Below, in pieces: positions 423-64,000 of a stretch of 64,000 nucleotides of DNA. A program made the position numbers and the translations under genes. How positions within the stretch are numbered: the stretch's first letter is position 1; each line of letters begins with the position of its first letter. The stretch is from Thermoproteota archaeon (GTDB lineage: Archaea; Korarchaeota; JAOZGF01; JAOZFZ01). The DNA is taken from positions 256,001-320,000 of the forward strand of contig JAOZFT010000004.1 in NCBI GenBank assembly GCA_027492035.1, given 5' to 3'. Below the pieces are notes generated by a model. It saw only the letters and a program-made list of their open reading frames with translations, searched no databases and was not told where the DNA came from.

Positions 423-539
423 TGGGCCGGGTGGGATTCGAACCCACGACCTCCGCCCTTTCGATTTCCTTAATCGTCAAGGCGGCATCATCTCTGGAGT
501 TGTTACTTAAACAACTTAGCCAGGCTAGACTACCGGCCC
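423..539 (-). tRNA. tRNA-Val(GAC) with two introns (26 nt in D-loop, 16 nt at 37/38)
   Basis: Cloverleaf GGGCCGG/CCGGCCC and TTCGAAT T-loop; BHB CTGG/CCAG with bulges CTA, AGA; BHB TTGA/TCGA with bulges CGA, AAG. Confidence 0.92.
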
Positions 540-20057: not shown

Positions 20058-20573
20058 GTGAAACCTTGGGAATATATAATTCGAAGCATCTCCCGAAACG
20101 AAATAGATAATGTGATAAGGATTAACCGGGAATGCTTGCCCGAAAATTATTCCCGTTTCTTCTTCGAAGAAATCTTTAGGAATTTCCAAAGGTATTTTTT
20201 AGTAGCCGAATTTAACGGCAAAATTGTTGGTTACGCCATGGCTCGTGTGGAAACAATATTTCATTTGTTTAAATTGCAAAAAAAACTTCATTTAATCTCA
20301 ATAGCAGTGCTTCCATCCTTTAGAAGAATGGGGATCGCCTCTTCACTCCTTAAAAAACTGGAGGAAGAAGCAGTTTCGGCGGACATTTTTTCAATTTTTT
20401 TAGAAGTGAGGGTAAGTAATTACGGAGCTCTTTCATTATACAGAAAGATGGGTTTTAAAATGGTTCAGGTTTTGAAGAAATATTACAGGGACGGCGAAGA
20501 CGCTTATTTAATGGAAAAAATATTGTCGAGGGGAATGGGGCCGCCCGGATTTGAACCGGGGTTTCTCGGATGA
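20058..20573 (+). CDS. rimI: N-terminal acetyltransferase, Ard1/RimI (GNAT)
   Basis: LPENY, HLISIAV...RRMGIA, LEVRVSN..A..LY, YYRDGEDAY.M. Confidence 0.92.
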   Translation: MKPWEYIIRSISRNEIDNVIRINRECLPENYSRFFFEEIFRNFQRYFLVAEFNGKIVGYAMARVETIFHLFKLQKKLHLISIAVLPSFRRMGIASSLLKKLEEEAVSADIFSIFLEVRVSNYGALSLYRKMGFKMVQVLKKYYRDGEDAYLMEKILSRGMGPPGFEPGFLG

Positions 20574-20626
20574 ACACTCTCGAGAGCCCGAGTCTCGAAG
20601 GCTAGACCTAGCTACCCCACGGCCCC
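20536..20626 (-). tRNA. tRNA-Pro(CGG) with 16-nt intron in the variable loop (about 45/46; 20563-20578)
   Basis: CGAGA-CTCGGGC-TCTCG arm; BHB CTCG/CGAG with bulges AGA, AAA; splicing restores the AGAC variable loop. Confidence 0.9.
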
Positions 20627-53814: not shown

Positions 53815-54778
53815 ATAAAGGGATGGATGAGTGGCTTACAAAAACAAGATATGAAAAGCCAAATTTGTACAAAGGATGGAGCAGTGAAAAAGATGTACCC
53901 CAATTATTAAATAAAGGAATTGTTCCAGTTGATAAGCCTCCCTCAATGACTTCAACGGCTGTTGTGGAATGGGTTAAATCCCTCTTCCATGTATCTAAGG
54001 CAGGTCATTTAGGAACCCTAGACCCCTACATAAAGGGGAGGGAAATCCTAACGTTACAGGGGTCTTACCTGTAGCCCTCGGTAAAGCCTGTAAAGTTGCT
54101 GATTTATTGCTTAAAACAGAAAAGGAATATGTTGGAGTGATGAAGCTTCATCGAGATATTCCAGAAGAAAATGTACGTAATGTTTTTGAAGTGTTTAAAG
54201 GGGAAATATATCAGGTTCCCCCCTCCAGGGCGGCTGTGAAAAGGAGTTTGCGCGTAAGAAAAATTCATGAACTGAAACTTTTACAGAAAAAGGGTAAATT
54301 CGTTCTGTTTCAGGTGAACTGTCAATCAGGTACTTACGTAAGGAAACTCTGCGTCGATATCGGCAGGGTTTTGAAAGTAAGAGCTAACATGGTTAGTTTA
54401 CGCAGAATAAAAACTGGAACATTTCACGAAGATCAATCCTTCACTTTACCACAAATAACCCTCGCTTATTATTTGTGGAAAACTAGGGGGGTAGAGGAGC
54501 CGATAAGGGAAGTTGTTAAACCACTAGATTCAGTCCTTAACAATTTGTTACCTGCAATATTAATCAAAGACTCTGCAGTCGAACCTGTTAAGAACGGTTT
54601 TCCGTTAATGATCCCAGGAATCATAGCTTTATCCAGTAAGGTTCCGAGAGGAGGCATTGTCTCTATTCAAAAATTAAACGGGGAAATAATTGCAGTTGCA
54701 AAAACGGTTTTATCTTCTGAAGAAATTTACAAGAAGAAAAGGGGGGTTGCAGCGAAACCTATCAAAGTTCTTGTCTAA
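53811..54778 (+). CDS. cbf5: H/ACA pseudouridine synthase Cbf5, spliced: join(53811..54021,54045..54778)
   Basis: VDKP, GH.GTLD|PNVTGVLP restored after removing 23 nt; KEYV, Q.PP..AVK, SGTY.R, LRR, PUA domain. Confidence 0.93.
54022..54044 (+). other. 23-nt BHB intron in cbf5 pre-mRNA
   Basis: Central helix CCCT/AGGG, bulges AG|A and AA|A, intron stem CCCC/GGGG, exon stem TTAGGA/TCCTAA. Confidence 0.9.
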
Positions 54779-57517: not shown

Positions 57518-58184
57518 TTAATTTATAAATTCTTCCAATTTCTTCTGTCCCTTCTTATTCCTGATTTTTTCTATTGTTTTCCATGTTTTTCTGATGTGTT
57601 TACCGAATGCTTCTCTGTTTTTTAAAGTTTTTTCTAAAAAATTAATTGTTGTTTTATCTGAAGGGTATCCTGAGCCTATCTCACCCATTTCTTCTTTTAT
57701 CTTCTCCATTAGTTCATCCCTGAAAACTTTTGCGATTATTGAAGCTGCTGCAACTACTAAATATTTCTGTTCTGCTTTGTTTTCTGAATGTATCACAACT
57801 TTCCCTTTAATTTCTTTGTTTAAGTATTTACTTATTTTTAAAGTGAATCTTTCTGTTTTTCTGTCAGGTGAATCAACGTAAACTTCATCTGGTTTTGTTT
57901 CGTTGATTATTTCAGCTATTTTTTTGGCTTCGAGCTCATTTAAATTTTTTCTTTTATCTATCTCCTGCGCTGTTACTTTTCTAAATGTGTAGTCACATTT
58001 TTTTATTATTTCTGTGAACAACTCCCTCCTCTTCTTGGCCGTTAATTTTTTGGAATCTTTCACCCCTATTTCCTGCAAAAAATTGATTTGTTTAGCGTTA
58101 ACCTTTACCCCGCAAATTATCATGGGTCCTAAGACAGGTCCTTTAGGCGGTTTATCCTCTACCTGCTTCATCCACTCCTAATAT
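57518..58184 (-). CDS. rnhB: Ribonuclease HII, spliced: complement join(57518..58142,58159..58184); start uncertain (GTG 58175 or ATA 58184)
   Basis: ILGVDEAGR|GPVLGPM restored after removing 16 nt; VKDSKKL, YVDS, VAAASIIAKV.RD, GSGYPSD, R.TW. Confidence 0.9.
58143..58158 (-). other. 16-nt BHB-type intron in rnhB pre-mRNA
   Basis: Minus strand AGGT-AG|A-GG(ATAAA)CC-GCCT-AA|A; cutting after the 2nd nt of each bulge gives in-frame GGT AGA GGA CCT. Confidence 0.82.
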
Positions 58185-58212: not shown

Positions 58213-59319
58213 TTAAATCACCTTTTTAACATATTCTTCTGCATAATCGACTATTACCCTTTTATAACCCTTAAGTTTACGGTCAAGTTCAGGGTCGCCC
58301 GTATCTACATGGAAGAAAGGAGTTTCAATTACTTTGCTTTTTGTTGCAACTAAAATTATGTTTTTAATCCCCACCTTCTTTATAACTTCAGGGCTTATTT
58401 GCTGGTTTCCTCTTCCGAAAATGAACCCTTGCTTACCCAATGGACTAACCACAATTTTGGCCTTTTTATCGTTTATTATTTTCAACAGCTCCTTTTCGTT
58501 TAGATCTAACCCTATAACTCTCTTCTTGTACATTGCATCCACCCCTAAAAATGTTTTAGGTTGGTTAAGCATTTTTGTTATTGTTGAAACAGTTGATCCA
58601 GGCCCTAAAATATAAACTGAGTCGTTCATGTTGTCTATAACCCATTTAGCTATTGAGATTTTATTTTCTTCGTCGCTGGGAAGCAAAGTCTTGGAATTTT
58701 GTACTCGGCCCTTTACCACAGGCACCTTTAAGTAACCCTTGATTTCAAGAACTAAACGGTCTTCTCGGAAAGCTTGTTCATTTACTTCTACAACCTCCCT
58801 CTCTTCAAACTCAGTTTTTCCATCCAGGAATTCACTGAATATTTTAAAGGCTGAATCAATGTTTAGAGCAAAAACCCCACTGTACATTTTCACTCCTGAA
58901 GGAACCCCTATCACGGGGACTTTTGCATCTACTGTTTCACATAGATCCACAGCGGTTCCATCCCCCCCGAAAAAAATAATTAATTCAACTTTTTCTTTTA
59001 ACATTTGTTCAGCTATTTTTTTTGTGTCTTCTCTGGTTGTTTTTTCTTTCCTTAAACCTAAGGGCTTTATTTCAATATTTACTTTCTTCGCTTCTTCTTC
59101 ACCCATATTTCCAGCTCCTGTTAACAATTCAAACTCTTCCTTTCTGTTTTTTATTTTTTCAAGGAACTTCACTGCTTTACTTGGTGTTACTGGTTTTGCT
59201 CCGAGTTTTAAAGCTTTTTTCAGGGTTTCTTCTCCATCAGTGCCCTTTAACCCAACTCTCCCCCCCATGCCGGCAATCGGGTTCACAATTAACCCCACTT
59301 TCCTTTTCATTTTTTTCAA
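58213..59319 (-). CDS. ATP-NAD kinase / AcoX-like family protein (COG3199-like)
   Basis: NPIAGMGG.VGLKGTDG, GGDGTA, P.GVKMYS, GPGST, QGF..GRGNQQ, VDTGD. Confidence 0.9.
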   Translation of the reverse strand: MKKMKRKVGLIVNPIAGMGGRVGLKGTDGEETLKKALKLGAKPVTPSKAVKFLEKIKNRKEEFELLTGAGNMGEEEAKKVNIEIKPLGLRKEKTTREDTKKIAEQMLKEKVELIIFFGGDGTAVDLCETVDAKVPVIGVPSGVKMYSGVFALNIDSAFKIFSEFLDGKTEFEEREVVEVNEQAFREDRLVLEIKGYLKVPVVKGRVQNSKTLLPSDEENKISIAKWVIDNMNDSVYILGPGSTVSTITKMLNQPKTFLGVDAMYKKRVIGLDLNEKELLKIINDKKAKIVVSPLGKQGFIFGRGNQQISPEVIKKVGIKNIILVATKSKVIETPFFHVDTGDPELDRKLKGYKRVIVDYAEEYVKKVI

Positions 59320-59947: not shown

Positions 59948-60068
59948 GGGCCCGTGGCTTAGCCTGGCTGGAGCGCTTGCCTTATAACGACGTTTATCGT
60001 CTTTTGAAGGCGGCGTTTTCCTTTCATGAGAAAGCAAGAGGTCGCGGGTTCGAATCCCGCCGGGCCCA
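59948..60068 (+). tRNA. tRNA-Ile(TAT) with 46-nt intron at 37/38 (59987-60032)
   Basis: Ile-type GGGCCCG acceptor and A73; CTTGC-CT TAT A|A-GCAAG; BHB CTTA/TGAG with bulges TAA, AAA. Confidence 0.88.
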
Positions 60069-61372: not shown

Positions 61373-61664
61373 GCCAAGTTGGCTGTAATCCGCCTTCTAT
61401 TTATAGTTGGCATTCAACTGAGCGGATTGTTCCCTTCGCTGCAAGTCCTCATAAGGGCCTCCAATCCTTAGGCTTCAAGCACAGCCGTTTCACTAAATCT
61501 TACGGGGTCTTCTGGAAGTCCACTTCCTTCATCACCACCTCCCGTAAGGTATATCGTTTCTGTGCTGGAGGAGGTTTCTCAACCTGTGCCTTTCGGCACC
61601 TTGAACTTGCAGACGCCGGCGGATTTCTTCAGTGCATAGACCGTAAGCCAACCGCCAACTTGGC
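61373..61664 (-). ncRNA. rnpB: RNase P RNA (divergent) or RNase P-like RNA
   Basis: P1 GCCAAGTTGGC/GCCAACTTGGC; P4 AATCCGCC/GGCGGATT; conserved-region-like GAAGAAA, ACAGAAAC, TGAAAC, AGTTGAAT, ATAGAA..TTA; GNRA-capped P8 and P9 hairpins. Confidence 0.85.
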
Positions 61665-61696
61665 TTCCAAGCAAATGCTCCTTTACGCTAGGTTTA

Positions 61697-64000
<2,304 letters not shown>

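Follow-up and report, generated by a model that had tools for sequence, protein, structure and literature searches.

A 16-nucleotide insert in the catalytic motif of an archaeal RNase HII gene is very probably a tRNA-type intron and has same-site counterparts across Archaea

RNase HII has a catalytic aspartate-glutamate (D-E) pair, which lies in the universal motif DEAGRGP in the N-terminal part of the enzyme. Here, we analyze a stretch of 64,000 nucleotides (nt), referred to as the window, from a Thermoproteota archaeon (GenBank assembly GCA_027492035.1, contig JAOZFT010000004.1, positions 256,001 to 320,000), in which the RNase HII gene, rnhB, is interrupted by 16 nt within this motif. The original prediction, made from the letters of the window, took these 16 nt for an mRNA intron of the bulge-helix-bulge (BHB) type found in tRNA genes, a reading that we consider highly likely to be correct. 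Coordinates are window positions unless a contig or locus is named, and rnhB is read on the minus strand. The gene is made up of exon 1, whose minimal version (58159..58175) runs from a GTG start through GAT GAA GCA GGT AG; the 16-nt BHB-type intron (58143..58158), which contains a stop in the exon-1 frame; and exon 2 (57518..58142 including the stop codon), which by itself covers positions 8-198 of the Pfam model RNase_HII (PF01351). The gene directly upstream encodes NAD kinase (58213..59319, minus strand, identified by Pfam scan), and S13 lies downstream.

The two halves of the enzyme are found in different reading frames. The exon-1 frame reads AAA ATA TTA GGA GTG GAT GAA GCA GGT AGA GGA TAA, that is, KILGVDEAGRG followed by a stop, and the closing TAA (58154-58152) lies inside the insert. 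The annotated-looking open reading frame (ORF), at 57518..58171 and 217 amino acids (aa) long, occupies a second frame and carries GPVLGPMIICG. It matches RNase_HII with an E value of 1.6e-43, starting only at model position 8, so that it is without the N-terminal D-E pair. Both features, an ORF without the catalytic pair and ILGVDEAGRG-stop in another frame, were thus read on the minus strand just as they had been described. Deletion of 58143-58158 by script, which corresponds to the cut expected from the endonuclease rule, fuses the two frames into DEAGR/GPVLGPM (the slash marks the junction) and restores the motif. A full-length RNase_HII match that includes the N-terminal D-E motif is reached only after this deletion, and the spliced product aligns from its own residue 1 to residue 8 (the DEAGRG position) of uninterrupted relatives. 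The 16 nt (58158 to 58143) occur a single time in the window. Because the two bases before the insert recur at its end, the junction can slide over three equivalent positions. Upstream of the D-E codons, the exon-1 frame remains open to 58217 with neither ATG nor TTG, and the GTG at 58175-58173, directly before D-E, is the only canonical in-frame start of exon 1; in relatives, an ATG or TTG start precedes D-E by 3-7 codons. A further ATG (58169..58171), formed in the +1 frame by the GAT-GAA codons, opens the D-E-less 217-aa ORF on unspliced RNA.

The fold of the insert was parsed with a BHB scanner modelled on the canonical tRNA introns encoded here. In this geometry, the outer helix runs without a gap into the central helix on the 5' strand, and the inner helix does so on the 3' strand, each time ahead of a 3-nt bulge; the cuts are placed after the second base of each bulge, the rule given by the tRNA introns of the genome. 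In rnhB, exon 1 supplies the 5' strand of the central helix (58161..58164) with the wobble base of its Ala codon and the following Gly codon, and the intron supplies the 3' strand (58145..58148). Positions 58164-58161 form 4/4 pairs with 58148-58145, one of them U.G, and the two 3-nt bulges are on opposite strands: AGA at 58158..58160, with the predicted cut at 58159/58158, and AAA at 58142..58144, with the predicted cut at 58143/58142. The inner hairpin (58149..58157) has a stem of 2 base pairs (bp), 58157-58156 with 58150-58149, and a 5-nt loop, and the outer helix is one pair, 58165 with 58141. The scanner therefore returns the parse of the original prediction (a 4-bp helix, bulges AG/A and AA/A, and a 2-bp inner stem), including the weak outer helix by which the motif had been called relaxed. 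The topology is that of the canonical tRNA introns of this genome. With an outer helix of 1 bp and an inner helix of 2 bp, the insert is outside the strict hBHBh' form; it is a relaxed BHB form, as is the intron found in cbf5 here.

By itself, the fold in rnhB carries little weight as evidence; its significance stems from comparative data. At fixed 16-nt boundaries, four central pairs together with at least two inner pairs are found at 0.36% of 1,000,000 random genome positions, which, given the three slidable junction positions, amounts to a chance level of about 1% for rnhB alone.

The comparison with relatives, which had been named as a check on the prediction, revealed a second case close by. 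In a Pfam search of 41 genomes, namely this genome (G000) and 40 relatives, RNase_HII was detected in 38, and only here and in G001 does the main copy start at model position 8. G001 represents another genus and is the only further genome in the family. Its insert was found through the Pfam model, independently of any motif, and lies at the same nucleotide as the one described here: the gene reads ATG-GGG-ATA-GAT-GAG-GCG-GGG-AG, followed by a 23-nt insert and then A-GGA-CCA. The bulges are the same, and the inner stem is 4 bp of different sequence, compared to 2 bp here. In the central helix, G001 has G-C where this genome has A-U, the exon partner being the silent wobble position of the Ala codon and the intron partner the final base of the helix; one other pair is lost. 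Exon 1 of G001 opens with ATG, three codons ahead of D-E, and exon 2 cannot be reached from any start on the unspliced message; the neighbors are again NAD kinase and S13. In the other genomes of the phylum, DEAGRG(P/A) is unbroken in 28/28 loci, four of which have ILGVDEAGRGPVLGPM, the same as in the spliced product here. The main rnhB copy is thus interrupted only in G000 and G001 among the 30 phylum genomes read, and a phylum-wide repeat with 32 genomes at ≥80% completeness gave the same result. Most of the other phylum genomes also encode an intact RNase HII-like paralogue of ~240 aa, which covers model positions 1-150.

Inserts at this site are also found far outside the phylum. A degenerate DNA pattern, which combined the exon codons with both bulge sequences and allowed a 9-39-nt gap, was run on species-representative genomes and yielded 20 loci, of which six are bacterial chance matches outside any rnhB context and were rejected. 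The other 14 are archaeal rnhB genes with (I/V)DEAGR, an insert of 21-38 nt, and GPV(I/F)G. They are labelled Woesearchaeota (5), Thermoplasmatales (2), Nanohalarchaeota (1), Altiarchaeota (1), Nitrososphaeria (1), Promethearchaeota (1), only "archaeon" (2), and "Thermoproteota archaeon" (1), the insert of the last being the G001 sequence. Besides G001, 13 archaeal genomes with at least five phylum-level labels therefore carry the insert. A Pfam scan of the 14 loci, covering 59 of 62 ORFs of ≥90 codons (three antisense ORFs of locus L052 were left out), showed an RNase_HII ORF beginning at model position 8 in every one of them. In metagenome contigs, a search with exon 2 found no relative, and a slightly longer DNA pattern gave 46 matches, all of them DEAGR/GPV, with inserts of 21-42 nt in 38 distinct versions. 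Their central helix is complete (4/4 pairs) in 38 matches, has 3/4 pairs in seven, and 2/4 in one. The lengths of the 46 inserts divide among the three phases as 19, 13, and 14, and each insert compared brings a stop or a frameshift, so that no single recoding rule fits. Inserts with other bulges, another Asp codon, or a length beyond the set range escape the pattern, so that this count is a minimum. Since codons dictate both exon flanks, 15/15 genome sequences have an outer helix of 1 bp, and the inner helix outside this genome has 1-11 bp; the inner part seen here is the shortest among the 61 sequences compared. Two of the loci, L051 129-1154 and L055 128-1147 (both plus strand), are near-identical (96% protein identity) despite the labels "uncultured archaeon" and "Promethearchaeota". 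In their intron, the inner stem is not adjacent to the central helix.

The helices change in a compensatory manner. The 15 genome sequences were aligned with MAFFT, and a structure of one outer, four central, and six inner pairs was written by hand; several rows of the alignment are close kin. Paired cells amount to 90.6%, compared to 62.5% in shuffles, and cells changed on both sides number 41, compared to 11.8. The covariation score, 0.661 versus 0.168, was not matched in any of 500 shuffles, and sliding the partner by 1-3 columns leaves ≤52.5% of the cells paired and a score of ≤0.219. Changes on both sides occur in 8/11 pairs, including all six inner ones. In the central pair beside the 5' bulge (columns 21/60), the wobble base of the exon Gly codon meets an intron base; it is paired in 14/15 sequences, and by four standard pair types. 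The central pair beside the 3' bulge is formed in just 9/15, so the effective central helix is 3-4 bp. The alignment thus provides strong indications that the helices are upheld by compensatory change among homologous introns.

The enzymes expected to process such an intron are encoded in the genome. EndA, the splicing endonuclease, is a 378-aa protein with two endonuclease domains (G000:C9:442896-444032, equivalent to L032 649-1785, plus strand), recognized by both Pfam and structure matches. The C-terminal half can be aligned over its full length with catalytic subunits from crenarchaeal heterotetrameric enzymes (2cv8, 6e-36; 3p1z_B, 1e-34), and the alignment covers the loop region with a conserved Lys, which we take to be the crenarchaeal-specific loop tied to broad specificity. 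Residues 91-184, in the N-terminal half, match the partner subunits 2zyz_A and 3iey_B. Altogether, EndA looks like a naturally fused beta-alpha pair of the crenarchaeal type. The ligase RtcB is encoded by an uninterrupted gene. An intact second rnhB, which had been named as a finding that would speak against the prediction, was looked for by Pfam search and not found in the assembly (93% complete, 42 contigs). A weak Pfam match on another contig (G000:C21 ~121,600-122,300, equivalent to L002 1486-1990, minus strand) was rejected as a second working copy. It has LDEAGKG in one frame, a one-base shift before the next strand, and then stops in all frames, leaving an open piece of only the 71 C-terminal codons. 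The rnhB gene at 57518-58175 is thus, as judged from the assembled sequence, the only usable RNase HII gene of the genome.

The same scanner finds an intron in cbf5 of this genome, 23 nt long (54022..54044, plus strand), with bulges AG/A and AA/A. It has a central helix of 4 bp, an inner stem of 4-5 bp, and an outer helix of 1 bp, and splits the codon of the catalytic Asp after the first letter, at the published site (PMC2738675). The identical bulges of the rnhB, cbf5, and tRNA-Pro introns, part of the original prediction, are thereby borne out: the tRNA-Pro(CGG) intron (20563..20578, minus strand), 16 nt long and in a non-canonical position 3' of the anticodon arm, also has AG/A and AA/A, and the rnhB bulges are those of the tRNA-Pro and tRNA-Tyr introns. 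The length, too, is shared with four tRNA introns, since four of 16 nt lie in the window. The canonical tRNA introns of the genome have outer helices of 5-7 bp, formed by the anticodon stem, and are 12, 16, and 45 nt long. A wider set of mRNAs controlled by EndA, which had also been suggested, did not emerge. A genome scan for BHB motifs with AGA/AAA bulges, 12-70 nt long and joining two open frames, recovers cbf5 and rnhB, but its 93 matches stand against 77, 90, 92, and 105 with four of the control bulge pairs; the fifth (ACA/ATA) gave 24. This is no enrichment over the controls, in a crude test that was limited to AGA/AAA bulges. Of the 93 matches, 19 were picked by hand for short length or good helices, and their junction peptides resemble those of normal gene boundaries; convincing cases are confined to cbf5 and rnhB. 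The scan thus lends no support to further mRNA introns in this genome.

With regard to tRNA genes more generally, tRNA-Pro CGG (20536-20626, minus strand) and tRNA-Pro TGG (C9:323970-324062, plus strand) have a common 16-nt intron in the same non-canonical position. Two other tRNA genes, at 423-539 (minus strand) and 59948-60068 (plus strand), are 117 and 121 nt long, a size that implies long introns or more than one; their identity (Val; Ile or Met) differs between aragorn and Rfam. Of the 23 tRNA genes detected by aragorn with intron search, 22 lie on contig C9 (666 kb) and one on C40, with zero in the remaining 1.2 Mb, which reflects either strong clustering of the genes or many intron-rich tRNAs that evade detection. 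The RNase P RNA gene (61374-61663, minus strand) is located directly downstream of the 23S rRNA gene (61696-64000, minus strand), which runs out of the window at its end.

From these observations we infer the following course of events, both for the cleavage and ligation and for their order. In the unprocessed transcript, the four exon-1 bases that comprise the Ala wobble position and the Gly codon would form a helix with four intron bases close to the 3' end of the insert, leaving two 3-nt bulges. EndA, as a single 378-aa beta-alpha fusion of the broad-specificity type, would then cut after the second base of each bulge, and RtcB would join the exons while the 16-nt intron is released. Only the spliced message would encode RNase HII with its catalytic D-E pair. 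On unspliced RNA, translation in the exon-1 frame would stop after eight codons, and use of the overlapping ATG frame would produce a D-E-less protein. The unspliced message could thus also yield an RNase HII that is devoid of the catalytic pair, in which case the splicing efficiency would set the ratio of dead to active enzyme.

Several other explanations of the insert have to be considered. A 16-nt insertion might simply have killed rnhB and never been repaired. The broken frame, an exon 1 that has no ATG, and the presence of one clearly decayed RNase HII-like gene in the genome are in line with such a pseudogene, and another copy could be hidden in the unassembled part of a 93% complete genome. 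However, exon 2 is intact over 207 codons and retains its strong Pfam match, while the out-of-frame exon 1 still reads GVDEAGR. True decay in this genome has a different appearance, as the C21 copy with its stops in all frames illustrates. Furthermore, the sister genus is interrupted at the identical nucleotide by an insert of another length, and there, too, the exons are intact; 59 further sequences are likewise interrupted and show compensatory changes in the helix. A pseudogene is therefore improbable. An error of assembly or sequencing, for which the 42-contig metagenome-type assembly is a pointer, is scarcely credible: a structured 16-nt insert is not a typical error, and inserts occur at the same nucleotide in independent assemblies.

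The remaining two alternatives let the message be used as it is. In the bypass of T4 gene 60, ribosomes go from a take-off codon, followed by a stop, to a matching landing codon. Similarly, the insert here opens with GGA-TAA, and GGA recurs as the first full codon of exon 2, such that take-off at the GGA before UAA and landing at the GGA 16 nt downstream would give the same protein as splicing. Matching end codons are however found in only 2/48 distinct inserts, and bypass is consequently not the shared mechanism; the sister genus has GGG versus GGA and one more codon before its stop. What is conserved is instead the helix between the exon and the 3' end of the intron, together with the inner stem, that is, the substrate of a splicing enzyme, and we regard bypass as very improbable. 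Alternatively, the 217-aa product of the ATG at 58171 could be the real one, with the upstream DEAGR as a relic. This is the form that an ORF caller would report, an AGGAG stands a few bases before the ATG, and the frame is open into exon 2. However, the ATG arises automatically from GAT-GAR codons, the frame is linked to exon 2 because the insert happens to be 3n+1 in length, and no such start is present in the sister genus. In addition, the catalytic D-E is uninterrupted in all 28 of the other loci read in the phylum. We give a D-E-less enzyme as the sole intended product only a slim chance.

A spliced BHB intron at 58143-58158 is not free of difficulties either. The single outer pair and the 2-bp inner stem make this the weakest structure of the 61 sequences compared, and when the 61-nt region is folded without constraints, exon 1 pairs preferentially with exon 2, at a stability not exceeding that of shuffled sequences (z = -0.06). 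Where relatives begin translation, exon 1 offers neither ATG nor TTG, and the GTG start would result in an N-terminus two residues shorter than in G001. In the 60 sequences derived by pattern, the bulges and exon codons are fixed by that pattern, so bulge identity is not independent evidence, and the structure scored on the alignment was derived from the same 15 sequences. The broad specificity ascribed to the fused EndA is suggested by its likeness to crenarchaeal catalytic subunits. Finally, splicing has been demonstrated experimentally for cbf5, whereas for rnhB we infer it from sequence. These points all weigh against splicing. On the other side, the feature is confirmed as real by what the sequences show directly: its anatomy, the restored frame, a conserved site, base pairs that covary, and genes for both enzymes. 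With the same-site inserts, the covarying helices, EndA and RtcB, and no second intact rnhB in support, we conclude that 58143-58158 is very likely a spliced, tRNA-type intron in the rnhB message, as predicted.

The distribution of the inserts bears on their origin, where our reading is likewise an interpretation. At 4/14 of the other loci, rnhB is immediately preceded by a gene of one family, whose products have LAGLIDADG_3 and winged-helix domains. It is full-length in L048 (845-1879, minus strand, 345 aa) and L053 (1273-2355, minus strand, 361 aa), and shortened homologues lie upstream of rnhB in L041 (647-1180, plus strand) and L043 (389-1171, plus strand). The L048 and L053 proteins are 49% identical even though one genome is labelled Woesearchaeota and the other Altiarchaeota; the genomes that carry the family are labelled Woesearchaeota, Altiarchaeota, and Nanohalarchaeota. 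The near-identical L051 and L055 loci have, in place of the endonuclease, a 340-aa protein with a Cro/C1-type helix-turn-helix upstream of their intron-bearing rnhB. The first six base pairs of the inner stem are common to the Thermoplasmatales, Altiarchaeota, and Nitrososphaeria inserts, and the same site is occupied in distant lineages while most relatives within the phylum are uninterrupted (2/30 interrupted). An adjacent endonuclease family and a patchy distribution fit a mobile intron with a free-standing homing endonuclease, and the rnhB intron is probably of this kind, aided by a LAGLIDADG/winged-helix enzyme. No homing-endonuclease gene adjoins rnhB in G000 or G001, and no LAGLIDADG_3 match was found anywhere in this genome (93% complete). 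The insert described here, the shortest of 61 sequences, looks like a shortened orphan copy, which would have been inherited at least since the split from the sister genus. Its position in the active site is better explained by a mobile element that targets the most conserved DNA than by regulation.

Put more generally, we lean slightly towards the view that the rnhB mini-introns form a widespread family, spreading horizontally, driven by LAGLIDADG enzymes, aimed at the active site, and shrinking to as little as 16 nt once the nuclease is lost. If true, splicing of mRNA by tRNA enzymes would be common in Archaea, from DPANN to Asgard, rather than a crenarchaeal curiosity limited to cbf5, and gene callers would systematically report such genes as intact, N-terminally shortened enzymes. 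The locus described here already flags this systematic annotation error, a complete-looking ORF that is without two catalytic residues. The activity of RNase HII in this organism, in ribonucleotide excision and primer removal, is probably reliant on the tRNA-splicing machinery. Spanning 16-42 nt, each with a 1-bp outer helix, the inserts also form a natural set of minimal RNAs on which the real requirements of the broad-specificity endonucleases could be probed, and they would tie mRNA introns to homing-type mobility. To this, the present case contributes a lineage outside DPANN, the minimal 16-nt form, and a test by covariation.

Among known systems, the cbf5 intron is the closest. A cbf5 pre-mRNA intron is reportedly present in Desulfurococcales and Sulfolobales, in work said to be that of Watanabe in 2002 and Yoshinari in 2006. 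Published cbf5 introns are 16-44 bp long, and putative introns in other genes are described as predicted but unconfirmed, according to one survey (Yokobori 2009, PMC2738675). As of 2020, a later study names cbf5 mRNA as the only additional archaeal BHB intron reported (PMC7714728). No report of a BHB intron in rnhB was found in the full-text literature searched, from which subscription journals are largely absent; "RNase HII", "intron", and "bulge-helix-bulge" co-occur there only in unrelated passages, and the intron thus appears to be new, as had been proposed. Like the cbf5 intron, the rnhB insert is a short BHB element in a protein-coding gene, splits the region of a catalytic residue, must be removed for function, and is too short to encode a nuclease, and in this genome the two have the same bulges and equally weak outer helices. 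They differ in the host gene, in the position of the rnhB insert only eight codons from the start, and in distribution, as the rnhB site is occupied across several archaeal phyla and that of cbf5 in one crenarchaeal clade. It is thus very probable that rnhB is a new host gene for a known kind of intron, at a site widely shared among Archaea. The inserts at the same spot in many archaea suggest that mRNAs are spliced by the tRNA-type route more often than in cbf5 alone, and a second host gene with an intron in its coding region would change the picture of cbf5 as the sole case.

The insert shares the 3-4-3 geometry, the length, and the bulge sequences of archaeal tRNA introns, and presumably their enzymes, but has an outer helix of 1 bp in place of 5-7 bp, owing to its codon-fixed flanks. 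It resembles the archaeal rRNA and tRNA BHB introns that come with LAGLIDADG homing endonucleases, and cases of "collaborative homing" by a free-standing endonuclease next to an intron, in the nuclease gene that adjoins rnhB at 4/14 loci, in the targeting of the most conserved stretch of a gene, and in its patchy distribution; it differs in that the associated nuclease gene lies outside the intron and that this genome has no LAGLIDADG_3 match. Another mRNA element, in the 5' untranslated region of HVO_1309 of Haloferax volcanii, is a BHB that was confirmed in vitro as a substrate of the splicing endonuclease (Schwarz 2020, PMC7714728). HVO_1309 and rnhB are alike as mRNA substrates of the archaeal splicing endonuclease, but the former has its BHB in an untranslated leader, where no reading frame is interrupted. 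In the more distant HAC1/XBP1 system, IRE1 cuts a short insert out of an mRNA at paired stem-loops, an RtcB-type ligase joins the exons, and the frame changes. This splicing, mentioned in PMC13149111, resembles the process proposed for rnhB in combining a protein endonuclease with RtcB joining of mRNA exons and an altered reading frame, and differs from it in using another nuclease and in being regulated by stress.

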